A stretch of DNA of 37,712 nt, taken from the IMG/VR virus record IMGVR_UViG_2700989168_000004; one strand, given 5' to 3'. Both the position numbers and the translations under genes were made by a program. Below, piece by piece: positions 1,715 to 35,753 of this stretch. The DNA is from a virus (Duplodnaviria; Heunggongvirae; Uroviricota; Caudoviricetes). Every line of letters begins with the position of its first letter. The stretch's first letter is position 1. The notes below the pieces were generated by a model. It was not told the origin of the DNA. It searched no databases and was given only the letters and a program-made list of their open reading frames with translations.

Positions 1715-2077
1715 TTAACGACCTGCTGCGCGGAGTTTTCCGTCAGGTTCACCGGCAAGAGTCAGTAACTGTCCCTGGTCTTCCTGCAGAATAGTCAGGC
1801 GACCACCGCGATTGACATACATCGGCGTTTCGGTGGTGTCTTCTTCGGAAATTTTCCCGCGGTTAGTCGGGCGAACATATGAGAGTTTGTGTTTGATTTT
1901 CACTCGGTTCTCATCAAACGGTTCGATTTCCAGGTTGAGCGAGACCTTACCTTTGGTTTTCGTGTTCATCACACCGGAAGCGACTTCACTGAGAACTGCG
2001 CCGATTTTGGTTTCAAATACGCCGCCGTCCAGCTCCCCGATAAATGCCTGCACATCAGTACTGCGTTCGCTAGCCAT
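1715..2077 (-). CDS. yfdP: hypothetical early protein (YfdP-like, 120 aa)
   Basis: ATG at 2075-2077 preceded by GAGGAG RBS; the longer track ORF (to 2395) extends into a GC-rich stop-poor region and is rejected. The 120-aa product MASERSTDVQAFIGELDGG... matches the size expected for yfdP. Confidence 0.5.
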   Translation of the reverse strand: MASERSTDVQAFIGELDGGVFETKIGAVLSEVASGVMNTKTKGKVSLNLEIEPFDENRVKIKHKLSYVRPTNRGKISEEDTTETPMYVNRGGRLTILQEDQGQLLTLAGEPDGKLRAAGR

Positions 2078-2125
2078 TTTGCTGCTCCTCATCATATCGA
2101 CCCTGCAAGGTCGGTTAGTTTCTCC

Positions 2126-2214
2126 ACAAAACAGAGAAGAACACCTGCGGTGACTGCCGCCCGGATGGATTGGGTTATGAGCCCGTCGTCCGGTGATGCT
2201 CTTCTCTGTTTTGT
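2126..2214 (-). terminator. long stem-loop (perfect 15-bp inverted repeat ACAAAACAGAGAAGA / TCTTCTCTGTTTTGT around a 59-nt GC-rich loop); candidate tL-type terminator or processing site upstream of yfdP-like gene
   Basis: Arms at 2126-2140 and 2200-2214 are exact reverse complements; the 3' arm ends in UUUUGU on either strand. Sits between the upstream cargo and the yfdP RBS. Confidence 0.3.
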
Positions 2215-2481
2215 AAAAAGGACGGTACCAGCCGGAAGCAAGGGTACAAGCTGGTACCGCCAAGACTACACACAGCATAAAGTTGTGGTGCCGGGTGCCT
2301 CCCGGTGCCTGGCGAAGGTTGCACACCAGGCGGGTGGGTATCCACAGAAGGTCGACTGTCAGCCTCAACCTTAACCCGCGTGCGCTGAGCCGCATTCACC
2401 ACAACGCTAAGGATTCTCTCTGGTTGAAAATACTTAGCTGTTATGTGCCTGCTTTTAGCCACATCAGGCGAGGTGGACCTA

Positions 2482-2530
2482 GTTATTCCCCAACAACAAG
2501 GATTCGGTTAATCTGGTTATCCCCAACAAC
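2482..2530 (+). promoter_or_regulatory. pair of direct repeats GTTAT(T)CCCCAACAAC upstream of the 144-aa cargo gene; candidate regulator binding sites
   Basis: Repeat copies at 2482-2497 and 2516-2530, the second ending 15 bp before the ATG at 2546; no convincing sigma70 -35/-10 hexamers found nearby. Confidence 0.3.
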
Positions 2531-2545
2531 GCAAAAGGAAAAGAA

Positions 2546-2980
2546 ATGTCCGGTAATATCTATACGCTGTACAAATCCCACTGTGAAAATGTTGGAAAGT
2601 ATCGGGGCATTGAAATCAGTGGGGTAGTGTCATCAGTCGAAATAAGCAAAGTTGAATCAAGGGCAACATTACTTACTCTTTTGGACCTTGTCTTACATGA
2701 GCACCGGAAGAAATTCGGCACTCCCTATAATCAGTTGAATGGGAAAAAGGCTCTGGTTCACCTTATTCTGATGAAGCATCACTGGATGCCAAAACAGATT
2801 AATGAGATGAAATTTGATGAACTTCTTCTTTCAATTCAGGATGAACTCACACTTGATAAAATAAGCGTAACCGCCCAGAAATTTTTAGATTATCGAGACT
2901 GGAGATCACAAATTCATCACTTTGATGATTTTGACGAAAATGAATGGGATCCTAATTTGTCTGCACAATATCTAAAGTAA
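2546..2980 (+). CDS. hypothetical 144-aa protein, AT-rich cargo gene (function unknown)
   Basis: ATG with AAGGA RBS; coding region visibly AT-richer than flanking phage backbone; followed by a plus-strand intrinsic terminator; no recognisable motif or TM segment. Confidence 0.6.
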   Translation: MSGNIYTLYKSHCENVGKYRGIEISGVVSSVEISKVESRATLLTLLDLVLHEHRKKFGTPYNQLNGKKALVHLILMKHHWMPKQINEMKFDELLLSIQDELTLDKISVTAQKFLDYRDWRSQIHHFDDFDENEWDPNLSAQYLK

Positions 2981-3158
2981 CATCCTGTGATAAAACCGTG
3001 ATTTCCTGATCCAGTTTTTTTAAGGAGTCTATTGTTTCCTGTCGATAAGACAGCACTTCACGAAGCTGGTTTATAGCTGCCAGCTTCTTTGTCATCCACT
3101 CATAAATTTCCTCATCTGTGTAGCCAGGCGCGACGATTTTGGGTTCTGTTTTGTGCAT
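2952..3158 (-). CDS. hypothetical 68-aa protein, first ORF of the leftward PL transcript; convergent with and overlapping the 3' end of the 144-aa gene
   Basis: Strong RBS (GAGGAG, 7-nt spacer) before ATG at 3156-3158; the track start at 3173 is less likely. No arginine-rich motif, so not an obvious N homolog. Confidence 0.5.
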   Translation of the reverse strand: MHKTEPKIVAPGYTDEEIYEWMTKKLAAINQLREVLSYRQETIDSLKKLDQEITVLSQDVTLDIVQTN

Positions 3159-3202
3159 TTCACATCTCCTCAAGTTATCAGTTACTTGTTGATGGGGACC
3201 AG

Positions 3203-3215
3203 ATTGTTAAAGAGC
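3203..3215 (-). promoter_or_regulatory. boxA-like element (GCTCTTTAACAAT) in the PL leader RNA
   Basis: Minus-strand sequence GCUCUUUAACAAU matches the rrn/lambdoid boxA core (Nus factor binding) and lies just 3' of a hairpin in the leader. Confidence 0.45.
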
Positions 3216-3217
3216 TA

Positions 3218-3243
3218 AGCGTCCTGTAGGGCGCTTTTTTGTT
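3218..3243 (+). terminator. rho-independent terminator after the 144-aa cargo gene
   Basis: Stem AGCGTCC / GGGCGCT (one G-U wobble) with 4-nt loop, followed by TTTTTTGTT on the plus strand; on the minus strand the same hairpin has a C-A mismatch and no U tract. Confidence 0.55.
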
Positions 3244-3320
3244 GCTAACGAATCATCCTGGACTTCATATGCCCCAGGCGGCTACTTCGTGGGCGTCCTG
3301 CCTGTTCGTTGTTTCGCTTG

Positions 3321-3353
3321 GGTACATTATGTATCTCAAAGGTACATTGTCAA
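3321..3353 (-). promoter_or_regulatory. PL-type early-left promoter with embedded operator (OL)
   Basis: Minus strand reads TTGACA - 16 nt - CATAAT; the spacer contains a near-palindrome ATGTACC-5nt-GATACAT sharing the GTAC half-site with the OR palindromes. Confidence 0.55.
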
Positions 3354-3392: not shown

Positions 3393-4067
3393 TTAGGCTT
3401 TGATTTTGTATCTTCTTGGTTTTCCTGAGAAAATCACTGTACCAATTATAGAGCAATTACCGTTGATCTTAATGTAAGGCTCAGGCCAGTTTGGGTTTAA
3501 CGCTTTGAGATAACGCTGTGTCCCATCTTCTATCAACCTTTTGAAGGTGGTTTCGCCTGTATCGTGCATCAATGCAATAACGTCGTCACCGTGGCAGGCA
3601 GGTACTTCAGGATCGACAAAAATCATGTCTCCCGGGCGGTACTCATCAATCATTGAATCACCTATCACCCGCAAGATATAAGTCATTTCCCCACAGGGTA
3701 CAGGGCAGGGATACGTTTCTGCTGTGCTCAAATCAACCTCAGAATATCCAACTTCTTTCCATGCTCCGGCCTGTACCCATGATATGACAGGGACTAATGT
3801 GATTTGTTTATTAGTGATTGAAACATCAGGTTTTTTTGTGATGTTCGTTGTCTGGTGTTCTTGATCGAGCCATCCGACAGGCAGGTCGAAACATTTTTCG
3901 ATGTGTCGTGCCATGCTGTCACCGATATTTTTAGTAGCACCATCTCCCATAAACCTGCTGGTCTGGGTTGGCTCGCGATCAATCATAGTGGCAAAGGAAG
4001 AATTCCCGCCAACACCATCTCTCAGTTTTCTGGCGTTAGACCGCCGGATGTCATGGATTGTTTTCAT
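3393..4067 (-). CDS. cI: CI-type prophage repressor (N-terminal HTH, C-terminal S24 LexA-like peptidase domain)
   Basis: 224 aa; C-terminal segment with ISWVQAGAW...GDSM-like autocleavage domain pattern; divergent from a Cro-like gene across a region with palindromic operators. Confidence 0.85.
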   Translation of the reverse strand: MKTIHDIRRSNARKLRDGVGGNSSFATMIDREPTQTSRFMGDGATKNIGDSMARHIEKCFDLPVGWLDQEHQTTNITKKPDVSITNKQITLVPVISWVQAGAWKEVGYSEVDLSTAETYPCPVPCGEMTYILRVIGDSMIDEYRPGDMIFVDPEVPACHGDDVIALMHDTGETTFKRLIEDGTQRYLKALNPNWPEPYIKINGNCSIIGTVIFSGKPRRYKIKA

Positions 4068-4082
4068 AACGAAATTAAAACC

Positions 4083-4154
4083 CTTGTACCGTTAAGGTAC
4101 AAGTATCTTGAAGGTTCATTTCAATCATGTAATATGTACACCGGAGGTACATAT
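4083..4154. promoter_or_regulatory. OR-type operator region between cI and cro (two palindromes)
   Basis: Perfect 21-bp palindrome CTTGTACCGTTAAGGTACAAG (4083-4103) and inverted repeat ATATGTAC-7nt-GTACATAT (4132-4154) overlapping the cro RBS. Confidence 0.6.
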
Positions 4155-4953: not shown

Positions 4954-5288
4954 ACAGTTTAACAACACACTACCGTCGCTCGCAACTGATTGCGCTTCCT
5001 GTACCGGGTGGAAAAGCGAAGGTGGAGTATTGCTATGCAGTAAATGTACTAGGTGACAGGGAAATTGTAACCCACAGCTTTGCAGAGTGGGCTGTGGGTG
5101 ATTTCAACCGGCAGAAGGAGACAGTCCTTTGCGACAAGTTAACCGCTGGTTCAAAGATCACTACGGAGTGCCCGTCAGAGTCATTCGTTGGGAGCCGGAA
5201 ACACAACGGGTTATCTACCTCCGTGAAGGCTATGAGCATGAGTGCTTCAGCCCGCTCGAACAGTTTCGTTGTAAATTCAGGGAAATAG
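4950..5288 (+). CDS. hypothetical protein; frame uncertain (possible frameshift into an overlapping frame ending at 5308)
   Basis: ATG at 4952 overlaps previous stop; the C-terminal half is Ser-rich and low-complexity, whereas the alternative frame (AAGGAG RBS, TTG at 5129) gives a more protein-like sequence. Confidence 0.3.
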
Positions 5289-5297: not shown

Positions 5298-6239
5298 ATG
5301 AGCACTAAATTAACCGGCTATGTATGGGATGGTTGCGCTGCGTCAGGCATGAAATTATCCAGCGTGGCAATTATGGCCCGCCTGGCTGATTTCAGTAATG
5401 ACGAAGGTGTGTGCTGGCCATCAATTGAAACCATTGCCCGTCAGATTGGCGCGGGGATGAGTACCGTCAGAACGGCTATCGCACGGCTGGAAGCAGAAGG
5501 CTGGTTAACGCGTAAGGCGCGTCGCCAGGGTAACCGCAATGCGTCGAATGTTTATCAGCTTAACGTTGCGAAGCTTCAGGCAGCGGCATTTTCTCAACTG
5601 TCAGATTCTGACCCGTCAAAATCTGACGCATCAAAATCTGACCCGTCAAAATTTGATGCGTCGAAATCTGGCAAAAAAGCGGGTTTTCACCCGTCAGAAT
5701 CTGGCGGGGATCCGTCAGTAAAATCAAAACATGATCCGTCAGATAAAAAAACTTCTCGTCCGGACGCTTCGCAACCGGACACGCAGACGGCTGAACAGGA
5801 GTTTTTAACTCGCCATCCTGATGCGGTTGTATTCAGCCCTAAAAAGCGCCAGTGGGGAACGCAGGATGATTTGACCTGCGCACAGTGGCTCTGGAAAAAA
5901 ATCATCGCCCTGTACGAGCAGGCCGCCGAATGTGACGGCGAGGTGGTTCGTCCCAAAGAACCGAACTGGACAGCCTGGGCAAACGAAATTCGCCTGATGT
6001 GTGTGCAGGATGGTCGTACTCACAAACAAATCTGCGAGATGTACAGCCGCGTCAGCCGCGATCCGTTCTGGTGCCGTAACGTGCTCAGCCCGTCGAAGCT
6101 GCGGGAAAAATGGGATGAGCTTTCCCTGCGCTTATCGCCGTCCGTCAGCACGTACACAGAAAAACGCGAAGACCCGTACTTCAAAGCCAGTTACGACAAC
6201 GTGGACTACAGCCAGATCCCGGCAGGATTCAGGGGGTGA
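5298..6239 (+). CDS. replication initiation protein (lambda O-like, N-terminal HTH) with internal origin iterons
   Basis: 313 aa; N-terminal HTH-like segment; central repetitive linker (SDPSKSDASKSDPSKFDASKS) encoded by tandem DNA iterons, as for lambda ori within O. Confidence 0.7.
   Translation: MSTKLTGYVWDGCAASGMKLSSVAIMARLADFSNDEGVCWPSIETIARQIGAGMSTVRTAIARLEAEGWLTRKARRQGNRNASNVYQLNVAKLQAAAFSQLSDSDPSKSDASKSDPSKFDASKSGKKAGFHPSESGGDPSVKSKHDPSDKKTSRPDASQPDTQTAEQEFLTRHPDAVVFSPKKRQWGTQDDLTCAQWLWKKIIALYEQAAECDGEVVRPKEPNWTAWANEIRLMCVQDGRTHKQICEMYSRVSRDPFWCRNVLSPSKLREKWDELSLRLSPSVSTYTEKREDPYFKASYDNVDYSQIPAGFRG
5601..5750. repeat. replication-origin-like iterons (about 13-bp units, GTCA(A/G)AAT(C/T)TGAC, 14-15 bp periodicity) followed by an A-rich tract
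   Basis: At least five tandem copies plus degenerate copies (CCGTCAGAATCTGG, CCGTCAGTAAAATC, CCGTCAGATAAAAAAAC) inside the O-like gene. Confidence 0.6.
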
Positions 6240-9918: not shown

Positions 9919-9935
9919 TTTTGTGGAGAAAGTTG

Positions 9936-10313
9936 ATGCGTGATATTCAGATGGTTCTTGAGCGTTGGGGAGCGTGGGCGGCTAATAATCATGAAGATGT
10001 GACCTGGTCGTCCATTGCCGCCGGTTTTAAGGGATTAATTCCTTCAAAAGTAAAATCTCGCCCACAATGTTGTGACGATGACGCGATGATCATTTGCGGG
10101 TGCATGGCCCGTCTGAAAAAGAACAACAGCGATTTGCATGATTTATTGGTGGACTATTATGTCGGCGGCATGACTTTTATGGCGCTTGCACGTAAGCATG
10201 GGCGATCTGATTGTTGGGTTGGCAGGATGCTCCAGAAAGCTGAGGGCGTAGTGGAGGGTATGCTGATGGTGTTGGATCTCCGATTGGAGATGGATGCTGA
10301 TTGTTCGAAATAA
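9936..10313 (+). CDS. late-gene antitermination protein Q
   Basis: About 125 aa with conserved Cys cluster ([16 protein letters not shown]), located immediately upstream of a short leader plus terminator and the late region; GGAGA RBS before ATG 9936. Confidence 0.75.
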
Positions 10314-10412
10314 TTAAAGGAAAAGTTGCTGTCTGATTGTCATTAGTCTAACATTTTAAATGTTGGAATCGCAACGTAGTTATTACCATATAACAGCTTG
10401 TTTCCTGATTTA

Positions 10413-10441
10413 GCCAGCCTCCCCAAAGGCTGGTTTTTTTC
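10413..10441 (+). terminator. tR'-type rho-independent terminator downstream of the Q gene (late promoter/qut region at about 10320-10410)
   Basis: Stem CCAGCC / GGCTGG with 8-nt loop followed by TTTTTTTCT. Confidence 0.6.
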
Positions 10442-10468
10442 TAATAAGTATTATTTCGGGTAGGGATT

Positions 10469-10993
10469 TTATTGTTTAACCCATAATAATTCATTGACAT
10501 TGAATCCCAACTTTTGAGCGGTTCGCACATAGTCTGCTTTTACTTTATCTGGAATAGTTGGGGTCCTTGCCAGAATCCATAGGTATTCTCTGTTCGGACC
10601 ACTGACAAGAGCATACTTATACTCATCATCCAGTTTGATTACATTATAGCCACCATAGAAGGGGCCAAAAAACGAAACCTTCAATGCTGCAGTTTTAGTA
10701 TCTCCAGTAAAGTATGCTTTACCTTCGCTCTCGCTCCATTTATTTTTCGTTGGATCGTATCCACGGTTAAGTACACGAATCCCTCCGTCGTTCCGTTTTC
10801 CATAAGTAGCGCTGACCTGTTCCAGATCACGTTCGAACCGGTTCTCGAGGCGAGCTATTTCATACCATTTTCCGAGGTAGCGGTTGGCGTCAAAATTTGT
10901 AATCGGCTGCACACCTTTAGGTGGTGTCGGGGCCTTACATGCTATAAGAGTGAAAGAGAGTGCAATGCCAGTCAACACAGGCCATAACTTCAT
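10469..10993 (-). CDS. blc: outer-membrane lipocalin (Blc homolog) lipoprotein
   Basis: Signal peptide with lipobox (LIAC), and long colinear matches to E. coli Blc as recalled (NFDAxRYLGxWYEIAR, KVSFFGPFYGGYNVI, YLWILxRTP). Confidence 0.9.
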   Translation of the reverse strand: MKLWPVLTGIALSFTLIACKAPTPPKGVQPITNFDANRYLGKWYEIARLENRFERDLEQVSATYGKRNDGGIRVLNRGYDPTKNKWSESEGKAYFTGDTKTAALKVSFFGPFYGGYNVIKLDDEYKYALVSGPNREYLWILARTPTIPDKVKADYVRTAQKLGFNVNELLWVKQ

Positions 10994-11185
10994 AATAAAT
11001 CCTGTACTTTTGATAGTTGAGAGTAAGTATGAAAGATAGATGATTACGACCGATCACTTAAAGAACTTTCATACTATATTAGGAATAGTCCATAACAGAA
11101 AAATTGTCAGTGATGACGCCAGAAAGGCAATTTATTCCGTGCACTACACAGTTTATGTGTTAATGAATTAGTCAAGGGGGAGAAT

Positions 11186-12145
11186 ATGATAAAAAAACCT
11201 GTGATTGGAATCAGCGGTTGTTTGGCCGGTTCTGCTGTTCGTTTTGATGGTGGTCACAAAAGAGCTGACTTTTTAATGGACAAATTAGTGGAATGGGTAA
11301 CATTCAGACCAGTATGTCCGGAAATGGCTATAGGGCTGCCAGTTCCGCGTCCTGCTCTACGTCTTGTGCGCTCGACGCAAGGAAATATACGGATGTGTTT
11401 CAGCCACGACCAGAATGAGGATGTGACAGAGAGAATGACAGAGTTTAGTCGTTCTTATATGGACAAATTAAAGGATGTATCGGGGTTTGTGGTTTGTGCT
11501 AAATCTCCCAGCTGTGGCATGGAGCGCGTGCGTGTCTATGATGAAAATGGTAATCGAGGTCGTAAAGATGGAGTGGGACTATTTACGAGTACTTTGATGG
11601 AAAAGTTTTCCTGGCTACCGGTTGAAGAGGATGGGCGATTACATGATCCAGTGCTTCGTGAGAATTTTGTTGAAAGAGTTTTTGCTTTGCATGAGCTCAA
11701 TCACCTTTACAAGGAGAAATTATCAAGAAGAGAGTTATTAGCTTTTCATAGTCGTTATAAGCTTCAGTTGTTGTCGCATAGTCAGGCAGGCTATAAAGAT
11801 ATGGGACCATTTGTGGCTGCAATACACGAGTGGGCGGACCTTGAATCATACTTTGAGGTGTATCGTGATAAGCTGATGGCGATTCTCAGAAAACCTGCAT
11901 CACGTAAAAATCACACGAATGTGCTGATGCATATACAGGGGTATTTTAGTAACTACTTAAGTACACGCCAGCGTAAAGAGTTGAGCGAGGTTATACTTAA
12001 CTATCGTTCTGGCACATTACCTCTTCTTGCGCCGTTGACTCTGCTGAAGCATTATCTGGGTGAGTATCCTAATGATTACTTGCTTACACAGAATTACTTC
12101 GATCCCTATCCGGACGAACTGGCTCTAAGACTGATGGTAAATTAA
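11186..12145 (+). CDS. DUF523 (TudS-like thiouracil desulfurase family) - DUF1722 fusion protein (tentative)
   Basis: N-terminal GISGCLAG..VRFDGG and further conserved Cys residues resemble DUF523; C-terminal half resembles YbgA/DUF1722; RBS GGGGGAG before ATG. Confidence 0.5.
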   Translation: MIKKPVIGISGCLAGSAVRFDGGHKRADFLMDKLVEWVTFRPVCPEMAIGLPVPRPALRLVRSTQGNIRMCFSHDQNEDVTERMTEFSRSYMDKLKDVSGFVVCAKSPSCGMERVRVYDENGNRGRKDGVGLFTSTLMEKFSWLPVEEDGRLHDPVLRENFVERVFALHELNHLYKEKLSRRELLAFHSRYKLQLLSHSQAGYKDMGPFVAAIHEWADLESYFEVYRDKLMAILRKPASRKNHTNVLMHIQGYFSNYLSTRQRKELSEVILNYRSGTLPLLAPLTLLKHYLGEYPNDYLLTQNYFDPYPDELALRLMVN

Positions 12146-12496
12146 TTGTATGCGATATCATCCAAAAGGATGAGTTCCTGCATGCAGGATATTTACAATC
12201 GTAAAAACTACACTATGATACCCAGAGTGTCAGTTTGTATAAAAACTCTGTTTACGCTGAAGAAACAATTGAGATGCAACTTAAAGTTGGTAAACATGCC
12301 AGTCAAAATATATAATATTATGATTCCACGCAGCTATATATAATATAACAGATTGGTTTAATAATTTGTCTTTGTGAGTTAAATACATAATTTTATACTT
12401 GTGATGCAATGAAATTTTCCTTATTGTTGAACTTGCGAATATTGATTTTCCACCTATACTTACCTGGTGTAACCCCAATGATATCAGGTGGATAAT

Positions 12497-13228
12497 ATGC
12501 CATACATATGTTCTATCATTTTGGTGTTGAACTCGTTTGATGTCCGAATTGGTAAAGAAGATATTTTGTTTAAAAAAGGAAGTGCTGTTCTCATTGATTA
12601 CAATTTAAAAGATTTTTTTTCATCAAATATAGATCATGTAATGATCGTAGATGTTGAAGAGAAAACAGTTAATGATTTCTTTAAAAGCAACACACTCTCA
12701 CCTTTTTCTGTAAGAAGGTTTTATCCGGCATACTTGATGGTGGAATGTGAAGATTTTTCATTGTTAAAGAACTTGATTGCATGCTTGAATTGTGATGGCA
12801 GAACTGTGGATTTTGTTAGAAATCAAATATCACTTGCATGTCTTGCTATCTTATCTTCAGAGAAAATAGTGCAAAGTTTTTTATTTGGATGTCTTAATAG
12901 TTTAGGAAGTAAAGTTAAGGCTATTATTCACACGGATATATCTGCAGCATGGAGACTTTGTGATATATCTTCAAGACTGTATCTGAGTGAAAGTCTGTTA
13001 AAAAGAAAATTAAAGCACGAAGGCTTATCATTTAGTAAGTTAATTCTTGAAGAGCGAATGGTGATGGCGGAAAGGTTATTAAGCTACAATTTATATTCTG
13101 TTGGAAAAGTTGCTGAGATATGCGGTTATGAAAACACGTCATATTTTGTGAGTGTTTTCAGAAGATATTTTGGTGTTCCTCCCCATCAATATTCATCAAG
13201 ATTTTTTTTAGAAAAAGACATGATGTAA
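12497..13228 (+). CDS. AraC-family transcriptional regulator
   Basis: C-terminal dual-HTH AraC signature (...KVAEICGYENTSYFVSVFRRYFGVPPHQY); gene is strongly AT-rich; ATG 12497 after AGGTGG. Confidence 0.85.
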   Translation: MPYICSIILVLNSFDVRIGKEDILFKKGSAVLIDYNLKDFFSSNIDHVMIVDVEEKTVNDFFKSNTLSPFSVRRFYPAYLMVECEDFSLLKNLIACLNCDGRTVDFVRNQISLACLAILSSEKIVQSFLFGCLNSLGSKVKAIIHTDISAAWRLCDISSRLYLSESLLKRKLKHEGLSFSKLILEERMVMAERLLSYNLYSVGKVAEICGYENTSYFVSVFRRYFGVPPHQYSSRFFLEKDMM

Positions 13229-21780: not shown

Positions 21781-22104
21781 ATGCTTCTGACAATGGAAGA
21801 GATTAAAGCCCAACTCCGGCTGGATGAGGATTTCGATGCTGATGACCGCCATCTGCAACTGCTGGCCTGTGCGGCGCAAAAGCGGACGGAAACGTATCTG
21901 AACCGGAAGCTCTATGCTCCGGATGAAACCATTCCGGACAGCGATCCGGACGGGCTGCACCTGCCGGATGATATTCGTCTGGGGATGCTGATGCTTATCA
22001 GCCATTTTTACGAAAATCGCTCGTCGGTTACAGACGTTGAGAAAATGGAGTTGCCAATGAGCTTTAACTGGCTTGTCGGCCCGTACAGGTATTTCCCGCA
22101 ATGA
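21781..22104 (+). CDS. head-tail connector (gp6-like)
   Basis: About 107 aa in the canonical position after the capsid gene; acidic N-terminus. Confidence 0.75.
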   Translation: MLLTMEEIKAQLRLDEDFDADDRHLQLLACAAQKRTETYLNRKLYAPDETIPDSDPDGLHLPDDIRLGMLMLISHFYENRSSVTDVEKMELPMSFNWLVGPYRYFPQ

Positions 22105-22511
22105 AAATTCGTCAGGCGCAGACCAGCGCAACCTACATTCTGCCGGACCCCGGTGAACTGAATAAACGCGTCCTGATCCGCCAGCGGGTGGATATGCCCG
22201 CGGATAACTTTGGCGTGGAGCCTCAATACCCGGTTGCGTTCCGGACATGGGCGAAGGTTGTCCAGACCAGTGCCACCACCTGGCAGGAAACCGCGCAGAC
22301 CGGGGACGCCATCACCCATTACATCACCATTCGTTACCGCCGGGGGATCACCGCTGATTATGAGGTGGTCTGCGGTGACAGTGTGTACCGGGTGAAACGT
22401 CAGCGCGATCTGAACGGGGCGCGGCGCTTTCTGCTGCTGGAGTGTACGGAGCTGGGCGAATGTAGGCAGAGTCACGGAGGCAACAATGACGACTTCCTTT
22501 TTGCACGTTGA
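22101..22511 (+). CDS. head closure / head-tail joining protein (SPP1 gp16-like)
   Basis: ATGA-coupled to the connector gene; size and order consistent. Confidence 0.7.
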   Translation: MKIRQAQTSATYILPDPGELNKRVLIRQRVDMPADNFGVEPQYPVAFRTWAKVVQTSATTWQETAQTGDAITHYITIRYRRGITADYEVVCGDSVYRVKRQRDLNGARRFLLLECTELGECRQSHGGNNDDFLFAR

Positions 22512-22992
22512 TTTTCAGCAGCCCGCGGAGATGCGCTTTAACCGCGCCCGTGTCCGGCGGGCGTTTGTCACGATTGGTCAGCGTCATATGCGTGATGCCC
22601 GTCGGCTGGTGATGCGCCGTGCGCGGTCGGCAACGGGTGAAAACCCCGGTTATCAGACCGGACGCCTGGCTCGTTCGATTGGTTACATGGTACCCAGAGC
22701 CAGTAAACATCGCCCCGGTTTTATGGCACGTATAGCCCCTAACCAGCGTAATGGAGAGGGAAACCGCCGTATCACCGGTGATTTTTATCCGGCTTTTTTG
22801 TTCTATGGCGTGAGGCGAGGGGCAAAGCGTCGTCGCAGCCATCATCGTGGTGCATCCGGTGGCAGCGGCTGGCGACTGGCTCCACGTAATAACTTCATGG
22901 TGGAAACGCTTGAAAAGAACCGCAGCTGGACACGCTATTTTCTGGCGCGGGAATTGCGTAAATCACTGAAGCCGGAGCGACGACACAGATGA
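22486..22992 (+). CDS. HK97 gp10-like tail/neck component
   Basis: Strong GGAGG RBS; basic protein in the neck-module position. Confidence 0.65.
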   Translation: MTTSFLHVDFQQPAEMRFNRARVRRAFVTIGQRHMRDARRLVMRRARSATGENPGYQTGRLARSIGYMVPRASKHRPGFMARIAPNQRNGEGNRRITGDFYPAFLFYGVRRGAKRRRSHHRGASGGSGWRLAPRNNFMVETLEKNRSWTRYFLARELRKSLKPERRHR

Positions 22993-23549
22993 AACTGACG
23001 CCTGTTATTGCTGCACTGCGTGCCCGCTGTCCGTATTTTGAAAACCGGGTGGCAGGCGCGGCCCAGTTCAAAAATCTGCCGGAGGTCGGAAAGCTGAGAC
23101 TCCCGGCGGCGTATGTGGTACCGGGTGATGACTCTCCGGGAGAAAACAAAAGCCAGACCGACTACTGGCAGGAGCTGAAAGAGGGCTTCTCCGTGGTTGT
23201 CATACTGAGTAACGGGCGTGATGAGCGCGGTCAGTTTGCCTCGTATGATGTGGTGGACGATGTCCGGCAGATGCTCTTTAAGGCTCTGCTGGGCTGGAAC
23301 CCGGAGGCGTGCGGTAACCCGATTACCTATGACGGCGGCACGCTGCTGGATCTGAATCGTCATGAGCTGATTTATCAGTTCGATTTTTCGGTCATCAGCG
23401 AGCTGACTGAAGACGATACCCGCCAGCAGGATGATCTGAACAGTCTGGATGAACTGCAAACGCTGGCGATTGATGTTGATTATCTCGAGCCCGGTAACGG
23501 GCCTGACGGCGATATCGAACATCACACCGAAATAACCCTTCCTTCCTGA
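22989..23549 (+). CDS. Mu gp37-like (DUF1834) tail-associated protein, tentative
   Basis: Position immediately before sheath module in a Mu-type tail cluster; family from recall. Confidence 0.45.
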   Translation: MKLTPVIAALRARCPYFENRVAGAAQFKNLPEVGKLRLPAAYVVPGDDSPGENKSQTDYWQELKEGFSVVVILSNGRDERGQFASYDVVDDVRQMLFKALLGWNPEACGNPITYDGGTLLDLNRHELIYQFDFSVISELTEDDTRQQDDLNSLDELQTLAIDVDYLEPGNGPDGDIEHHTEITLPS

Positions 23550-23557
23550 GGATCCTC

Positions 23558-23728
23558 ATGTTTGTCAAACCTGTTAAAGGGCGGTCAGTTCCTGACCCTG
23601 CCCGCGGCGACCTTTTGCCCGCCGAGGGGCGAAATGTTGATGAGAACAACTACTGGCTGCGCCGTGAAGCAGCGGGTGATATCCGGCGCGTGAATAAAAA
23701 GGTGAATACCGATGACGATAAGCTTTAA
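23558..23728 (+). CDS. small ORF preceding the tail sheath (56 aa), tentative
   Basis: ATG at 23558, stop TAA 23726-23728 overlapping the sheath start; not in the ORF track (below 60 aa). Confidence 0.35.
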   Translation: MFVKPVKGRSVPDPARGDLLPAEGRNVDENNYWLRREAAGDIRRVNKKVNTDDDKL

Positions 23729-25272
23729 CACCATTCCGTCGAATACGCTGGTTCCGTTGTTTTATGCGGAAATGGATAACCAGGCGGCGAATACTGCACA
23801 GGACAGCGGAGCATCGCTGCTGATTGGTCATGCCAATAACGGTGCAGAGATTGTTGCCAACAGTCTGGTGCTGATGCCATCGGCAGACTATGCACGCCAG
23901 ATTTGTGGTGCGGGAAGTCAGCTGGCGCGTATGGTCGAGGCTTATCGCCAGACCGACCCGTTTGGTGAACTGTATGTGATTGCCGTTCCTGAATCCACGG
24001 GCGCGGCGGCAACAGTTACGCTGACGGTGACCGGCGCGGCAACCGAAACCGGCACGGTGAATGTTTATGTGGGACGTACCCGCGTGCAGGCACCGGTGAC
24101 CAACGGCGATAACGTCGCGACGATTGCCAGCAGTATCCAGGATGCCATCAATGCCGTTCCGACCCTGCCGTTTACGGCTTCATCTTCGGCAGGCGTGGTC
24201 ACACTGACCGCGCGTCATAAGGGGCTTTGCGGGAATGAAATTCCTGTCAGCCTCAATTACTACGGCTTTGGTGGGGGCGAAGTGCTGCCAGCGGGCGTAC
24301 AGATTGCCGTGGCGACGGGTACCGCCGGAACGGGCGCTCCTGTTCTCACCGGCGCGGNNNNNNNNNNNNNNNNNNNNNNNNNNNNNNNNNNNNNNNNNNN
24401 NNNNNNNNNNNNNNNNNNNNNNNNNNNNNNNNNNNNNNNNNNNNNNNNNNNNNNNNNNNNNNNNNNNNNNNNNNNNNNNNNNNNNNNNNNNNNTGGTGAC
24501 CGAGATGAACGATACCAGCGGTCGCTGGAGCTATGCGCGTCAGCTGTATGGTCATGTGTACACGGCAAAGATCGGCACGCTGTCAGAACTGGTGACCGCA
24601 GGTGACCAGTTTAACCAGCAGCACATTACCCTGGCGGGATACGAAAAAGAGACCCAGACGCCTGCCGACGAGCTGGCGGCAAGCCGTACCGCCCGCGCAG
24701 CGGTGTTTATTCGCAACGATCCGGCACGTCCCACGCAGACCGGTGAGCTGGTGGGTATGCTGCCTGCGCCGAAGGGGAAACGGTTCACGATGACCGAACA
24801 ACAGACCCTGCTGTCTCATGGCGTGGCAACGGCGTATGTCGAAAGCGGGGTGCTGCGCATTCAGCGTGATGTCACCACGTACAGGAAAAACGCTTACGGT
24901 GTTGCGGATAACAGCTACCTCGACAGCGAGACGCTGCATACCAGCGCGTATGTACTGCGCAAACTGAAATCCGTCATTACCAGTAAGTACGGGCGTCACA
25001 AGCTTGCCAGCGACGGTACCCGCTTTGGTCCCGGTCAGGCGATTGTCACCCCGGCGGTGATCAAAGGGGAACTGCTGGCAACCTACCGTCAGCTTGAGCG
25101 TGCGGGGATCGTGGAAAACTACGAACTTTTTAAGCAGTACCTGGTTGTGGAGCGTGATGCCAGCGATCCGAACCGCCTGAACACGCTGTTCCCGCCTGAC
25201 TATGTTAACCAGTTGCGTGTCTTTGCCGTGGTTAACCAGTTCCGTCTTCAGTATTCAGAGGAGTCCGCATAA
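23712..25272 (+). CDS. contractile tail sheath protein (Mu gpL-like); interrupted by N run 24358-24493
   Basis: N- and C-terminal parts lie either side of the gap in different nominal frames; combined size about 520 aa. Confidence 0.85.
24358..24493. other. run of 136 N
   Basis: Literal n characters. Confidence 1.
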
Positions 25273-25628
25273 TGGCCCGTATCGGGGGAACCTGTTATTT
25301 CAAAATTGACGGTCAGCAGCTATCGCTGACCGGCGGCATTGAGGTGCCCATGAACAGGACGGTCAATGATGACATCATCGGCCTGGACGGTTCAGTGGAC
25401 CGCAAGGAAACTCACCGTGCGCCTTATGTCAAAGGGACCTTCAAGGTGCCGAAGAATTTTCCGGTGAGCAAAATCACCTCGTCTGATGAGATGACCATCA
25501 CTGCCGAGCTGGCGAACGGTCAGGTCTATGTATTGTCGTCCGCCTGGCTGCACGGAGAAGCGAACCATAATGCCGAAGAAGGCACGGTTGATCTTGAGTT
25601 CCACGGTGAAGAAGGGGATTACCAGTAA
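25272..25628 (+). CDS. tail tube protein (Mu gpM-like)
   Basis: 118 aa directly after sheath, ATGA-coupled. Confidence 0.8.
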   Translation: MARIGGTCYFKIDGQQLSLTGGIEVPMNRTVNDDIIGLDGSVDRKETHRAPYVKGTFKVPKNFPVSKITSSDEMTITAELANGQVYVLSSAWLHGEANHNAEEGTVDLEFHGEEGDYQ

Positions 25629-25897
25629 TGAAAGAGCTTGAGTTAAAGAAACCGATTACCGCTCATGGCGAGACACTCTCCGTACTGGAGTTTGATGAGC
25701 CCACCGGGAAAGATGTCCGCGAGCTGGGGTATCCCTACCAGATGAATCAGGATGAGTCCGTCAGACTTCTGGCGCATGTGGTATCGAAATACATTGTGCG
25801 GCTGGCGAAAGTGCCGCAAAGCTCTGTCGACCAGATGTCTCCGGCAGACCTGAATGCAGCGGCGTGGCTTGTGGCTGGTTTTTTCCTCCAGGCCTGA
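25628..25897 (+). CDS. tail assembly chaperone (short form)
   Basis: 89-aa ORF between tube and tape measure; ends just after a T TTT TTC slippery heptamer. Confidence 0.75.
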   Translation: MKELELKKPITAHGETLSVLEFDEPTGKDVRELGYPYQMNQDESVRLLAHVVSKYIVRLAKVPQSSVDQMSPADLNAAAWLVAGFFLQA

Positions 25898-26046
25898 CGG
25901 CTGAATACCTCACTGATCGCTTCTTTGACTGCGCCAGTTACTGGCGCATTAATCCTTTCGAATTGCTGAATATGCCGATCAGTGAAATTCCCTTACTGGT
26001 CAGTCAGGCAAACAGGATAGAGCAGGAGAAACGCACACATGGCTGA
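25628..26046 (+). CDS. tail assembly chaperone, -1 frameshift-extended form (predicted)
   Basis: Slippery site TTTTTTC at 25879-25885; the -1 frame continues open (FFPPGLTAEYL...EKRTHG) to 26046, overlapping the tape-measure start. Confidence 0.5.
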
Positions 26047-27874
26047 ATTTGAGCTTAAGGCGTTGATCACCGGTGTCGACAGGCTTTCTCCCGCGCTGTC
26101 GAAAATGCAAAAGAAAATCCGGGGATTTAAACGCCAGGCGGAAGAAGCGTCACAGGGTGGGCTGGCGCTTGGTGGCGGACTGGCAGCGGGTCTGACGCTT
26201 TCCCTGAAATCTTATGCCGATCAGGAAAACGCCGCCACCGGGCTGAAAGTCGCTATGATGGATGCGAACGGCGAGATTGGAAAGCGCTTTCAGGACATCA
26301 ATAAACTGGCTATTGGCCTGGGTAACCAGCTACCCGGTACAACGGCTGATTTCCAGAACATGATGCAGATGCTGGTGCGTCAGGGGATCCCGGCAGAAAA
26401 CATTCTGAGTGGTGTGGGTAAAGCGACAGCTTATCTTGCGGTACAACTGAAAAAAACACCGGAAGCGGCTGCTGAGTTTGCTGCAAAGATGCAGGATGCT
26501 ACCGGAACGGCGTCAGAAGACATGATGGGGCTGTTCGACACTATCCAGAAGGCGTTTTATCTGGGCGTGGACGATACCAACATGTTGTCCTTCTTCACTA
26601 AAACCAGCTCTGTTCTGAAGATGGTGAACAAGGACGGTCTTCAGGCTGCACAGAGCCTTGCCCCCATCAGCGTCATGATGGATCAGATGGGGATGAACGG
26701 GGAGTCGGCAGGTAACGCCCTGCGAAAAGTTATCCAGTCCGGATTAAGCGTTAAGAAAATCAGGGACGTCAATAAAGTCATGGCCCGCCAGAAACTCGGA
26801 GTGCAGCTCGATTTTACTGACGGCAAAGGGAGTTTTGGCGGTCTTGATAACATGTTCAGGCAACTGGCAAAGCTGCGAAAACTGACCGACGTTAAGCGAA
26901 CAGGTGTACTTAAGGCAATATTTGGTGATGATGCCGAAACCCTTCAGGTGGTCAATGCTCTGATCGATAAAGGAAAGGATGGTTACGATCAGATCCAGCA
27001 GAAGATGAATAAACAGGCCAGCCTGAATAAACGTGTTCAGGCACAGCTTGGTACGCTGTCCAACCTGTGGGAGGCAATGACGGGGACCGCAACTAACGGT
27101 CTTGCAGCTATTGGCGGCGCATTTTCTGGTGACGCTAAAAATATCACGCAATGGCTGGGGGAGTTGGGGGAGAAATTCACGAAGTTTGCGGATGAAAATC
27201 CCCGGGTTATTCGCGGCGTCGTCGGGCTTGCTGCTGGTCTTGCGATTCTGAAACTGGGATTGATGGGCGTTGGCGGTGCCATCAGTATTGTCAGCAGGAT
27301 CATGTCGATGACGCCGATTGGCATGATTGCGACGGCGATAGCCCTGGCTGCGGGATTAATTATCACTAACTGGGATGTTGTCGGACCTTATTTTAAGAAA
27401 CTCTGGGAAACCATTGGTCCTTATTTTGAGGCTGGCTGGGAACTCCTTAAGAAAGTTTTTGCCTGGTCGCCGCTGGGGATGGTGATCAATAACTGGGGGC
27501 CGGTTGTTAAGTGGTTTCAGGATATGTGGGACAAGCTGAAGCCAATTATTGAGTGGTTTACCGACAGTTCCGGTGACACGGTCGATGCCATTAACTCTGC
27601 TCAGTGGGGCGCGGGTGCTTATGATGCTTATGGGACGGGAATACCGGCGCGGGGATACACACCTTATCCGGCGGTAGATCCGGCTCAGTCAAACAACGCC
27701 TCCGGTGCCACAGGCCCGAATCCCTTCATGATTAACAAAGCTTCTGCGCCAAAAGTTGATGGTGAGATCAAGGTCTCTTTTATGAATTCGCCCCCGGGTA
27801 TGCGGGTTATGGAAACGCGATCCAGCGGTTTTGATGTCAGCCATGATGTTGGCTATACGCGCTTTGGCAGGTAA
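26039..27874 (+). CDS. tail tape measure protein
   Basis: 611 aa, Ala/Gly-rich with hydrophobic central segment, in the canonical position. Confidence 0.85.
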   Translation: MAEFELKALITGVDRLSPALSKMQKKIRGFKRQAEEASQGGLALGGGLAAGLTLSLKSYADQENAATGLKVAMMDANGEIGKRFQDINKLAIGLGNQLPGTTADFQNMMQMLVRQGIPAENILSGVGKATAYLAVQLKKTPEAAAEFAAKMQDATGTASEDMMGLFDTIQKAFYLGVDDTNMLSFFTKTSSVLKMVNKDGLQAAQSLAPISVMMDQMGMNGESAGNALRKVIQSGLSVKKIRDVNKVMARQKLGVQLDFTDGKGSFGGLDNMFRQLAKLRKLTDVKRTGVLKAIFGDDAETLQVVNALIDKGKDGYDQIQQKMNKQASLNKRVQAQLGTLSNLWEAMTGTATNGLAAIGGAFSGDAKNITQWLGELGEKFTKFADENPRVIRGVVGLAAGLAILKLGLMGVGGAISIVSRIMSMTPIGMIATAIALAAGLIITNWDVVGPYFKKLWETIGPYFEAGWELLKKVFAWSPLGMVINNWGPVVKWFQDMWDKLKPIIEWFTDSSGDTVDAINSAQWGAGAYDAYGTGIPARGYTPYPAVDPAQSNNASGATGPNPFMINKASAPKVDGEIKVSFMNSPPGMRVMETRSSGFDVSHDVGYTRFGR

Positions 27875-27934
27875 TGAAAAATTAATCTGTTAATGAGTCC
27901 CACTCCGGTGGGATTTTTTATGTACGGAGTTTAT

Positions 27935-30339: not shown

Positions 30340-30887
30340 TGAGGACGATTGAAGCCATGCAGCGACAACTCCTCGGCCTGATTGGGCGGGCCGTGGTGAA
30401 AAGCATCAGTGCCGCCACGAAATGTCAGACCGTGGATGTGTCTCTGATTGCCGGTGAACCCAAAGCTGGGGTTGAACATCTTGAACCCTACGGTTTTACC
30501 GCAAGGGCAAACAGCGGTGCGGAAGCGGTGGTGTTGTTTCCGGATGGCGACCGTTCTCATGCGGTGGTTGTTACGGTGTCGGACCGGCGCTACCGCCTGA
30601 AAGGGCTGCAGACGGGTGAGGTGGCTGTCTATGACGATCAGGGGCAGTCCGTGACGCTGACCCGGGAGGGGATCGTGGTGGACGGTGCAGGTAAAACGAT
30701 CACGTTTCGCAATGCACCTGAAGCACGTTTTGAAATGGACCTGGAAGTGACAGGACAGGTGAAAGACCTGTGCGACTCCGGCGGCACCACCATGTCAGCG
30801 ATGCGGCTTGCCTATAACGGGCATCGTCACAGAGAGAACGGTCAGGGCAGTAACACCGACAAACCTGATAAAGCGATGGAGGCATGA
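30339..30887 (+). CDS. baseplate spike / assembly protein V (Mu gp45-like)
   Basis: 182 aa; order and size. Confidence 0.75.
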   Translation: MRTIEAMQRQLLGLIGRAVVKSISAATKCQTVDVSLIAGEPKAGVEHLEPYGFTARANSGAEAVVLFPDGDRSHAVVVTVSDRRYRLKGLQTGEVAVYDDQGQSVTLTREGIVVDGAGKTITFRNAPEARFEMDLEVTGQVKDLCDSGGTTMSAMRLAYNGHRHRENGQGSNTDKPDKAMEA

Positions 30888-32932: not shown

Positions 32933-32935
32933 TCC

Positions 32936-33586: not shown

Positions 33587-33590
33587 CGAA

Positions 33591-35751: not shown

Positions 35752-35753
35752 GG

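Follow-up and report, generated by a model that had tools for sequence, protein, structure and literature searches.

Positions 2100–2545 of the window analyzed here, the entire 37,712-nt stretch of Caudoviricetes DNA in IMG/VR record IMGVR_UViG_2700989168_000004, are crossed by open reading frames on both strands and contain several inverted repeats, which raises the question of whether this region encodes a protein, binds a repressor, or acts as an RNA. A sequence-only reading had described it as a GC-rich, stop-codon-poor, structured non-coding spacer that could be a tL-type terminator or processing element, an extra operator cluster, or a structured RNA. We find that positions 2096–2438 are a non-coding RNA module oriented leftward (minus strand) in the pL unit of an SfV/e14/ST64B-type lambdoid prophage, in which a divergent STnc100-family RNA is followed by its terminator, and then by a long conserved hairpin carrying a copy of the initiator-tRNA anticodon arm. 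The structured, non-coding part of the earlier description therefore stands; the strand and the individual parts had to be reassigned, all of them to the minus strand, and the operator cluster fell away.

Coding potential and RNA structure

Folded as minus-strand RNA, the two halves of the region reached z-scores of −5.1 and −5.5, with 0 of 200 shuffles as good, and an alignment of homologues displayed compensatory changes in the core helices, the terminator, and the outer stem of the long hairpin. Together with a match to the Rfam family STnc100 on the same strand, these results bear out the suggestion of a structured RNA. The Rfam match was obtained in E-value mode, whereas a search in gathering mode returned nothing over the whole window. 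With a covariance model of our own, the module scored 63–80 bits in the homologues from SfIV, SfV, e14, and ST64B. No RNA is annotated at the module in RefSeq or GenBank records, and the e14 copy of the module in E. coli K-12 is listed as an ORF, ymfH.

The non-coding character had previously been deduced from frames that stay open across the region, an argument that did not survive even though its conclusion did: the six frames contain 30 stop codons, compared with 35.3 ± 10.6 in random 446-nt pieces of the same window, 42% of which have as few, so that stop density is ordinary. Likewise, a GC content of 0.53–0.55 is not unusual against 0.50 for the window. A coding origin, in which one of the crossing ORFs (the e14 ymfH-type frame, SfIV_34, or SfIV_35; in the window 2175–2462 (−), 1715–2395 (−), and 2283–2627 (+)) would be a real or recently decayed gene, could be argued from the presence of ORFs of 95–226 codons, from the many records that annotate hypothetical proteins or YmfH here, and from the published observation that a ymfH clone triggers the retron-Sen2 toxin. 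We nevertheless consider it very unlikely. Beyond the ordinary stop density, the window, ST64B, and e14 differ by indels of 1 nt and by an insertion of 20 nt that leave no frame intact, the e14 ymfH frame is itself created by a 1-nt deletion in helix P5 relative to the window, substitutions obey base pairing (compensatory changes and G.U pairs) and not codon patterns, and nothing is annotated here in ST64B, SfV, and several other records. A ymfH clone would, moreover, express the whole RNA module too, and the published phenotype can be reread as possibly RNA-mediated.

The STnc100-family core, linker, and terminator

The first part of the module consists of the following features, in the order of transcription:

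2406..2438, minus strand: P0 hairpin, directly 5' of the core (GCUAAG...AGAGAGAAUC...CUUAGC; an inverted repeat within the Rfam STnc100 alignment)
2282..2405, minus strand: pseudoknotted STnc100-family core, 124 nt (Rfam STnc100 match, own model, covariation)
2405..2397 / 2290..2282, minus strand: P1, 9-bp closing stem of the core (covariation)
2393..2378, minus strand: P2, 5-bp hairpin with a bulged A, GCGGC-UCAGC-GC(A)CGC (covariation)
2372..2366 with P4 loop 2321..2315, minus strand: P3 pseudoknot (pairing kept in many sequence versions)
2331..2324 / 2314..2307, minus strand: P4 (covariation)
2305..2291, minus strand: P5, CCGGG-AGGCA-CCCGG hairpin
2260..2281, minus strand: single-stranded linker with putative seed UUUAUGCUGUGUGUAGUCUUGG (near-invariance in homologues; unpaired in the RNAalifold consensus)
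2215..2261, minus strand: intrinsic terminator, with stem GGCGGUACCAGC (2261..2250) / GCUGGUACCGUC (2232..2221), a 17-nt loop, then C and U5 (2219..2215)

The core belongs to the STnc100 family but is divergent. Its match to the Rfam model (RF02076; 43.4 bits, E 5.7e-8, minus strand) falls below the gathering threshold of 47, but the alignment runs untruncated over model positions 1–206 of 206 and includes the closing stem, the internal hairpins, and the terminal hairpin with its U-run. The same model scored 38.4 bits in SfIV, 35.1 in ST64B, and 29.2 in e14. Using our covariance model R1, built from 33 diverse members, the window core reached 79.6 bits (E 6e-20); this is the only copy in the window, and a second one, sought with R1 in the right operon and the late leader, was not found. 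A 22-nt block of the core, CACCGGGAGGCACCCGGCACCA, is identical in STnc100, and this exact 22-mer is present in >120 viral contigs, canonical STnc100 sequences among them.

Helices P1 and P2 are 90–98% paired with fully compensatory changes (e.g., CCCCC/GG(A)GGG vs GCGGC/GC(A)CGC), and the P5 stem covaries in Kp4866-6 and Flotzy around a loop that stays AGGCA, while P0 is replaced in ST64B by a shorter hairpin, UAAGAG-AGAGAAC-UCUUA. The P3 pseudoknot forms at least 6 bp in 26 of 34 sequences, in 25 versions (Fisher chi2 200.7, df 68). Outside of the helices, ~45 unpaired or loop nucleotides are invariant across prophages of Enterobacteriaceae and Erwiniaceae. The STnc100-family core is thus a pseudoknotted, very strongly conserved domain, and both the pseudoknot and the extreme conservation of unpaired nucleotides exceed the needs of a base-pairing small RNA, which points to an additional or different function.

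Known STnc100, PasD, and EcOnc27 RNAs share with the window RNA the P1, P2, and P5 layout, a 3' terminator hairpin with U-run, and a prophage-borne location. In the window, however, another sequence stands in place of CGCGG, and P2 carries GCGGC for CCCCC with full compensation; the RNA is located in the pL leader, with a yfdP-like gene downstream, whereas known copies lie in the late region by Q, stx, or lysis genes; and it has its own linker sequence, followed by the tRNA-like hairpin.

The linker is the strongly conserved single-stranded stretch UGCUGUGUGUAGUCUUGG directly 3' of the core. This unpaired stretch spans 18–22 nt, its last two G residues (2261 and 2260) also opening the terminator stem, and it hardly varies in 9 of 10 homologues, among them Kp4866-6, phiNP, and Flotzy, despite their differing cores and terminators. 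When candidate targets within the phage were searched with RNAduplex, only the linker's own antisense stood out.

Two copies of GGTACC, correctly located by the earlier reading at 2224–2229 and 2253–2258, lie within a perfect 10-bp inverted repeat (2223–2232 / 2250–2259), and this repeat is in turn part of a 12-bp terminator stem on the minus strand, which upholds the proposal of a tL-type terminator. The hairpin is GC-rich, stands directly before a U-run on the transcribed strand, and is kept by compensatory change: among 10 homologues, eight of the 12 pairs are altered on both sides, pairing holds in 93.5% of cells, and the U-tract does not vary. It was recovered independently by RNAalifold and aligns with the terminal hairpin in the STnc100 model, and was missed by a simple terminator scan because of the loop limit of that scan (8 nt). 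A riboswitch-type pairing of the core with the terminator was also considered; this pairing, GAGGGG with CCCCUC, is present in canonical STnc100 and not in other subfamilies, and was dropped.

The sequence GGTACAAG does occur at 2243–2250 and, as had been pointed out, is the half-site of the palindrome at 4083–4103 between the cI-like and cro-like genes; with three GTAC cores within 36 bp, 2224–2259 could therefore be read as an additional repressor operator cluster. We regard this as extremely unlikely. This copy of GGTACAAG sits in the terminator loop, and the motif is no commoner than chance: it occurs three times in the window vs 0.89 expected, a count reached by 5 of 100 shuffles, and the extra copy is not significant because two of the three matches are the palindrome that defines the motif. 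Spacing and orientation are also wrong relative to the true operators, with TGTACC-N13-GGTACC on the RNA strand here vs TGTACC-N5-GGTACA at 4083–4103. Finally, conservation does not follow immunity type. The e14 terminator loop lacks GGTACAAG, ST64B, Kp4866-6, and Flotzy have lost the entire GGTACC stem yet preserve the stem-loop by compensatory change, and mEp460 retains the GGTACC stem despite a different repressor annotation and a cI-proximal leader free of GGTACA repeats.

At its 3' end the RNA bears a weak likeness to DicF of the Qin prophage (RF00039), as its hairpin UUGGCGGUACCAGCUU resembles the consensus UUGGCGGuAUCAGuUU and both end in CCG(U/C)CC and a U-run. The window scored 19.4 bits (E 0.16), short of the gathering threshold of 48, and the e14 copy was stronger at 28.5 bits. 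DicF is embedded in an early operon of its prophage and is excised from a longer RNA. The window RNA nonetheless lacks the 5' part of DicF, has another loop, far exceeds DicF in size, and carries a structured core on its 5' side.

A Y-shaped element with an initiator-tRNA anticodon arm

Downstream of the terminator, the module continues with a second structured element:

2126..2214, minus strand: Y-shaped tRNA-like element (pairing conservation, tRNA-fMet identity, Klebsiella phage copies)
2214..2195 / 2145..2126, minus strand: outer 20-bp stem, its base being the 15-bp inverted repeat
2193..2189 / 2165..2161, minus strand: stem A (covaries)
2185..2172, minus strand: anticodon-arm copy CGGGCUCAUAACCC, identical to initiator tRNA
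2160..2147, minus strand: hairpin B (covaries)

The perfect 15-bp inverted repeat previously noticed at 2126–2140 / 2200–2214, with its 59-nt spacer, is confirmed and extends to 25-nt arms that are 84% complementary, or to 20 contiguous pairs on the minus strand when counting G.U. It is separate from the terminator, and for the hairpin built on it the earlier suggestion of a processing element is plausible. Across 10 sequences, the outer stem is 96% paired and four pairs are changed on both sides; its strand is fixed as minus because one U.G pair is invariant and G.U occurs in 4 of the 10 sequences, where the opposite strand would carry A.C mismatches.

Within this element, the 14-mer CGGGCTCATAACCC at 2185..2172 (−) reproduces the anticodon stem-loop of the initiator tRNA of E. 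coli at 14 of 14 nt, so that both the three G-C pairs and the CAU anticodon are present; the reference tRNA-fMet sequence agreed at 100% with annotated tRNA-Met genes, of which there are ~4 copies per genome. The likeness ends there, as the element has neither D arm nor T loop, and a 20-bp duplex without CCA replaces the acceptor stem. ARAGORN called 0 tRNA genes in the window and did not call the Klebsiella phage copies described below, and the Rfam tRNA model gave no match to the element at E up to 10. A genome scan with an 18-mer also returned matches in high-GC actinobacteria (e.g., Streptomyces), which we take as chance in GC-rich genomes.

The same inner element closes tRNA arrays in Klebsiella phages, where it is the last unit and has an acceptor-like stem and an NCCA end, thereby revealing a previously undescribed tRNA-fMet-like element common to early-left leaders and late tRNA arrays. 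This occurrence, along with the 14-nt identity and the rejection by tRNA finders, would also fit a tRNA pseudogene that is decaying and serves no function itself. We consider such an origin quite unlikely, however, as the inner 22-mer GACGGGCUCAUWAYCCAAUCCA is exact in >120 viral contigs from two unrelated contexts, stems A, B, and the outer stem covary, and the place of the element, after the terminator and ahead of the first gene, does not vary.

Among known operons, tRNA-led ones such as metY-nusA-infB come closest; there, a terminator and RNase III sites stand between metY and the mRNA. The Y-shaped element might be a decoy for host tRNA-directed nucleases (e.g., of the VapC type), or be sensed by defense systems. 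VapC-type nucleases cleave tRNA-fMet, and the idea of defense sensing draws support from the retron-Sen2 response to the e14 copy cloned as ymfH. Pairing of the anticodon loop with an AUGAG near the start codon was found in some homologues, is missing in ST64B and sal3, and was dropped.

Genomic setting and probable function

The module ends in a short 5' UTR segment and is flanked by a gene on its 3' side and by a more distant promoter:

2096..2125, minus strand: 5' UTR with invariant GGAGAAAC, then a small hairpin CGACC-UUGCAG-GGUCG (2113..2098) (homologue alignment, RNAalifold)
1715..2077, minus strand: yfdP-like gene, 120 aa, first downstream (ATG 2077..2075; Shine-Dalgarno GAGGAG ~2090..2085; phrog_204, E 1e-49)
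3196..3353, minus strand: candidate pL and leader (TTGACA 3353 / CATAAT 3326, flanked by GGTACA operators; leader hairpin 3236..3217; boxA GCUCUUUAACAA 3215..3204)

The order cI, pL, leader, module, yfdP-like gene is common to the window, ST64B, L080, cdtI, phiNP, and Flotzy, the gene being labelled “protein YfdP”, orf32, or sb37 in related phages. In the 5' UTR, GGAGAA is invariant in 10 of 10 sequences, with GGAGA paired to the terminator U-tract by RNAalifold, and the small hairpin is swapped for GGCGG/CCGCC versions in ST64B, Kp4866-6, phiNP, and Flotzy. On the promoter side, the candidate pL matched 11 of 12 positions in a promoter scan, and the start of its leader has a homologue in the pL leader of ST64B. 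The rrn-type boxA 12-mer has one exact match in the window, and two were found with one mismatch allowed vs 0.2 expected.

A local scan for sigma-70 promoters found none within 300 nt upstream of the RNA; the sole minus-strand match (2792..2765, 9/12) lies inside a plus-strand ORF, and the upstream flank of the module shows no conservation among the window, SfV/e14, and ST64B. There is no minus-strand gene between pL and the module in ST64B and cdtI, and in the window a plus-strand gene occupies 2546–2980, through which pL transcripts would therefore run antisense. The small ORF after pL belongs to an uncharacterized PHROG family, Pfam searches of the neighboring small ORFs yielded no N-like or other family, and an N-like gene was not recognized in the early-left region.

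Taken together, the module most likely functions, and here our confidence is moderate, as an Hfq-type small RNA produced from the pL leader, accompanied by a terminator of the tL kind and, before the yfdP-like gene, by a hairpin with a structural or processing role. RNA polymerase starting at pL would transcribe the core and partly stop at the terminator, releasing a small RNA of ~200 nt whose U-tail and 3' hairpin could bind Hfq and whose linker could pair with target mRNAs, as in other STnc100, EcOnc27, and PasD RNAs. The hairpin that releases the small RNA would therefore also be a tL-type barrier before yfdP-yfdQ-yfdR...xis-int, and the rrn-type boxA near pL may help transcripts that read through. 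On the latter, the long perfect duplex would serve processing or stability, separating small RNA from mRNA in the manner of an RNase III site or of tRNA-like punctuation; as to the enzyme, we would conjecture that RNase III or RNase P processes this hairpin.

Published work on related RNAs provides a context for this scheme. Eleven STnc100 copies are present in EDL933, STnc100 copies are expressed in lysogens (one verified by Northern blot), the Hfq-bound small RNA EcOnc27 overlaps an STnc100 copy downstream of stx2B, and STnc100 is related to PasD, a small RNA from RIL-seq. If it depends on pL, the early-left RNA would be expected to stay off in lysogens, in contrast to the STnc100 copies of the late region.

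A different reading, which we find possible yet fairly unlikely, is that the module mainly acts in cis, with the pseudoknotted domain controlling terminator read-through into the early-left operon, either by modifying RNA polymerase (as for HK022 put or Bacillus EAR) or by sensing a ligand or protein (riboswitch, attenuator), and with the short RNA as a by-product. Several features would fit such a leader, including the order of promoter, leader, structured domain, short linker, terminator, and genes after pL in the window, ST64B, cdtI, and L080, the resemblance of the pseudoknot and invariant unpaired nucleotides to an aptamer or protein-binding RNA, and the early-left region without a recognized N-like gene. 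In many other phages, the core begins right at the +1 position of PR'-like promoters (TTGACA-N17-TAAATT), in the interval from Q to the lysis genes, and ends at a terminator before the latter, as do lambda 6S RNA and StxS, the short PR'-tR' transcripts. The window copy, however, lies in the left operon, and the phage's own Q-proximal leader (~10320–10440) has a terminator and no core despite the presence of a Q gene; elsewhere the core is found with different Q genes. STnc100 RNAs also accumulate in lysogens as discrete terminated species of ~160–210 nt, which indicates that the core does not abolish its own termination, the alternative pairing of core and terminator is not conserved across subfamilies, and a role in cis only would leave the conservation of the linker sequence unexplained.

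With HK022 put and Bacillus EAR the family shares a structured RNA placed at the 5' start of early or late phage transcripts, or close to it, and upstream of terminators, here in a phage without a recognizable N. HK022 put has been described as ~70 nt with two stem-loops; the window holds a single copy of the core, and STnc100 RNAs do terminate. Across HK022 22000–34000, which includes PL, PR, and the put sites, our model found nothing better than 8.3 bits (E 1.8), which argues against homology with put. A further possibility, in our view rather less probable than cis control, is that the core serves specifically to bind a ligand or a cellular machinery (e.g., as an antiterminator that modifies RNA polymerase, or as a riboswitch-like sensor) and that the Y-shaped element is an initiator-tRNA anticodon-arm decoy or signal.

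With the pL leader, the STnc100 family gains a second genomic niche. DNA similar to this intergenic region was detected in 2782 of 5426 complete E. coli genomes, with full-length matches in 1626. Carriers include K-12 and Shigella serotype-converting phages; most records annotate hypothetical proteins or nothing at this position, annotations that the RNA identity corrects.

Prophage setting and identity of the core

The window is an SfV/SfIV/e14-like lambdoid prophage, and the region of interest lies in a gap left of cI that is 99-100% identical to phages Kati and vB_EcoS-569R4, 96-98% to SfIV, SfV and SfII, 90% to the K-12 prophage e14 and 78% to Salmonella ST64B. DNA resembling this gap was found in 2782 of 5426 complete E. 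coli genomes.

Features of the prophage
Left of cI, minus strand: yfdP-, yfdQ- (DUF2303) and yfdR-like (HD) genes
Left of cI: 468-bp gap holding the module (2096-2438, minus strand)
2546-2980, plus strand, left of cI: ORF of phrog_5286, unknown function
3173..2952, minus strand, left of cI: 73-codon ORF
TTGACA 3353 / CATAAT 3326, left of cI: strong pL candidate among GGTACA operators
3393-4067, minus strand: LexA-type cI
From 4158, plus strand: cro-like gene; a cII-like gene is also present
9921-10313: Q
Present in the window: HK97-type head genes
34231-37033: gtrA, gtrB and a third gtr gene

The sequence-only reading rightly saw constrained, structured non-coding sequence with terminator character here, and its inverted repeats lie where it had placed them; minus-strand RNA folding strongly exceeds that of shuffled sequence in both halves of the region (z -5.1 and -5.5). 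The poverty in stop codons that it described does not hold (30 stops vs 35 +/- 11 in random window pieces), nor does an enrichment of GGTACAAG, its putative operator half-site, since two of the three occurrences (0.89 expected) are the defining palindrome itself.

In E-value mode, an Rfam scan matched minus-strand positions 2435..2212 to STnc100 over the full length of the model (1-206) at 43.4 bits (E 5.7e-8), and because this falls just below the gathering score of 47, default Rfam scans and public annotations miss the RNA. The terminal hairpin of the STnc100 model corresponds to the GGTACC...GGTACC repeat, followed by CCUUUUU. More than 120 IMG/VR contigs contain an exact copy of the core 22-mer CACCGGGAGGCACCCGGCACCA (2308..2287), in many unrelated sequence surroundings. 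A covariance model that we built from 33 diverse representatives, which also yielded the common architecture below, detects a single copy in the window (79.6 bits, E 6e-20). STnc100 copies are prophage-borne (EDL933 carries 11) and expressed in lysogens, one having been verified by Northern blot; EcOnc27, an Hfq-bound small RNA, overlaps another copy located downstream of stx2B, and the RIL-seq small RNA PasD is related to the family, whose function is still undefined in the literature.

Architecture common to the 33 core representatives
P1: NNNNUGGUG / CACCANNNN, then GAAU
P2: stem of 5 bp, bulged A, UNNGC loop
P3: strand of 6-9 nt pairing with the P4 loop to form a pseudoknot
Variable hairpin, between P3 and P4
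P4: helix whose loop pairs with the P3 strand
P5: CCGGG-AGGCA-CCCGG

Pairing reaches 90-98% in P1 and P2, where changes are compensatory; in P2, the window's GCGGC/GC(A)CGC differs from the canonical CCCCC/GG(A)GGG only by compensated pairs. At least six contiguous P3 pairs form in 26 of 34 sequences, in 25 sequence versions (AAGGUU/AACCUU in the window; Fisher chi2 200.7, df 68, against shuffles). In phage Flotzy and Klebsiella phage Kp4866-6, the P5 stem has covaried to GGUGG/CCACC around an unchanged AGGCA loop.

Such substitutions, which obey pairing rules, speak against the alternative that the region encodes a protein, as do the 1-nt and 20-nt indels separating homologues and the lack of any annotated gene here in ST64B and SfV. 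An ORF is annotated in K-12, where ymfH (3002-3313 of the retrieved e14 sequence) runs from two bases inside P1 (P1 start 3316) to the module end and almost coincides with the homologous core, linker, terminator and tRNA-like hairpin. In e14, P5 has lost 1 nt and also shows a G-to-A change, and ymfH is open in its frame only because of that deletion. A ymfH clone has been reported to trigger the retron-Sen2 toxin RcaT, and ymfH has been placed in an intE-xisE-ymfH operon and the YmfT iModulon. The trigger clone would express the RNA module.

Terminator and tRNA-like element

The linker UGCUGUGUGUAGUCUUGG is almost invariant in nine of ten aligned homologues, and persists in homologues with a diverged core (about 30 bits in Kp4866-6 and Flotzy) and a diverged terminator. 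Four forms of the terminator stem occur (GGCGGUACCAGC, GUCGGCGUC, GGCGGUUAUCCA and GCCCA); in the 10-homologue alignment, both partners have changed in 8 of the 12 pairs while the U-tract never varies, and RNAalifold independently predicts the stem. Given this covariation, U-tract and folding support, the GGTACC repeat is the stem of a predicted terminator and not an operator. The operator reading was also set aside in comparisons across phages: e14 has no GGTACAAG in its terminator loop, ST64B lacks the whole GGTACC stem, and mEp460 retains the stem despite a different repressor annotation and cI-proximal leader. Similarity of the terminator hairpin to the 3' hairpin of DicF is weak (19.4 bits; e14, 28.5 bits), with both scores under threshold.

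What phages mEp460 (2697-2831) and cdtI (about 2700-2812) have in common with the window is limited to the terminator and tRNA-like hairpin. Their 5' domains are more divergent, are closed by the same P1 (GUUGUGGU...ACCACAAC) and are followed by a different linker, AGCCACUGCUUUGG; our model scores the mEp460 domain at 26.6 bits, with a longer P5 loop, and does not detect that of cdtI. This suggests that 5' domain and seed may be exchanged as modules.

The 15-bp repeat makes up the basal part of a 20-bp stem (2214..2195 / 2145..2126) that is 96% paired across homologues, with four pairs changing on both sides. A U.G pair that never varies, together with G.U variants, places the structure on the minus strand only. 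The stem encloses a three-way element:

Stem A: CCGGA/UCCGG, covarying to CCGGG/CCCGG and CCUGA/UCAGG
Arm: terminates in GGG-CUCAUAA-CCC
Hairpin B: variable

Its 14-mer CGGGCUCAUAACCC (2185..2172) matches the E. coli initiator-tRNA anticodon stem-loop at every position, as verified against annotated tRNA-Met genes, and more than 120 viral contigs contain exact copies of the inner 22-mer GACGGGCUCAUWAYCCAAUCCA. In Klebsiella phages, Asn-(Phe-Thr-)Arg tRNA arrays lie downstream of Q and the element comes directly after them, with GGCCUG/CAGGCC as its acceptor-like closing stem and then ACCA or GCCA; the leader of one such phage also has an STnc100 core (89 bits) further upstream. Neither ARAGORN nor Rfam recognizes the element in the window or in the Klebsiella copies. 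The most fitting description is that of a conserved RNA element derived from a tRNA; this initiator-tRNA mimic and the invariant nucleotides of the core would be candidate binding sites. The long duplex, perfectly paired, may act in read-through transcripts as an RNase III-type or tRNA-like signal for processing or stability.

At the array end in three Klebsiella phages, an unannotated ~70-nt unit between Q and the lysis genes (L128 1509-1580; L132 and L133 about 1509-1580) combines the window's tRNA-fMet-like arm with an acceptor-like stem and NCCA end.

Transcription and working model

In many phages, the core begins directly after a PR'-like promoter (TTGACA-N17-TAAATT), between Q and the holin/endolysin genes, with a short linker and terminator after it. 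In the window, ST64B, phiNP, Flotzy and one further retrieved sequence (L080), it occupies the early-left leader downstream of cI and pL, as do the divergent cores of cdtI and mEp460. A promoter scan found no convincing local promoter for the module, conservation among the window, SfV and e14 begins only ~40 nt upstream of P0, the upstream flank in ST64B is unrelated, and the start of the pL leader is homologous between window and ST64B. From these observations we infer that the module is transcribed from pL.

Taken together, the STnc100-family core, intrinsic terminator and tRNA-like hairpin, all on the minus strand, are well supported as parts. The module would most likely yield an Hfq-type small RNA derived from the pL-leader transcript, its terminator doubling as a tL-like barrier, with a processing hairpin after the terminator and ahead of the yfdP operon. 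The main rival to this small-RNA model holds that the core acts in cis, in antitermination or sensing; the HK022 put region gave no match to our covariance model.

Just downstream of the pL candidate (3204-3240, minus strand), the leader carries a hairpin, AAGCGCCCUACAGGACGCUU (3236..3217), then UUA and GCUCUUUAACAA, a 12-mer equal to the rrn-type boxA core. It has one exact match in the window, and two with one mismatch allowed (0.2 expected); the right operon showed no boxA equivalent on its plus strand. Read in the plus-strand direction, this hairpin would be a strong terminator of the convergent ORF 2546-2980.

Distribution and neighbouring elements

Many genera of the Enterobacteriaceae and Erwiniaceae carry the core 18-mer. 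Tandem cores, two or three copies ~220-480 nt apart, occur in Superficieibacter, Enterobacter and several viral contigs (genome sequences L274, L273, L285 and L269; viral L017, L034, L048, L068 and L073). In three IMG/VR contigs (L012, L050, L060), a "mini-core", GGUGGAUAAGCCGGGCAUCAUCCCGGCACCA, with P1- and P5-like parts only, lies about 100-150 nt upstream of a full core; the promoter upstream of it has a TTACCATAATGGTAA palindrome and adjoins a portal-like gene.

Across the whole window, our model places no core in the window's own Q-downstream leader. In this stretch (10320-13228), a short leader 3' of Q (PF06530) has a terminator, AGCCAGCCTCCCCAAAGGCTGG+T7 (about 10412-10440), and cargo genes precede the lysozyme gene:

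10469-10993, minus strand: Blc-like lipocalin, between Q leader and lysozyme gene
11186-12145: 2-thiouracil desulfurase/DUF1722 protein
12488-13228: AraC-family regulator

Rfam in gathering mode gave no IsrK or C4 antisense RNA match in the window. Both families score above gathering thresholds in the right operon of ST64B (5732-5920) and cdtI (5084-5160), in what looks like an immI-like module. Finally, a direct repeat, TTAT(T/C)CCCAACAAC..., is present at 2484-2535 in two copies spaced 31 nt apart, immediately 5' of the plus-strand ORF 2546-2980, and may represent the regulatory region of that ORF.
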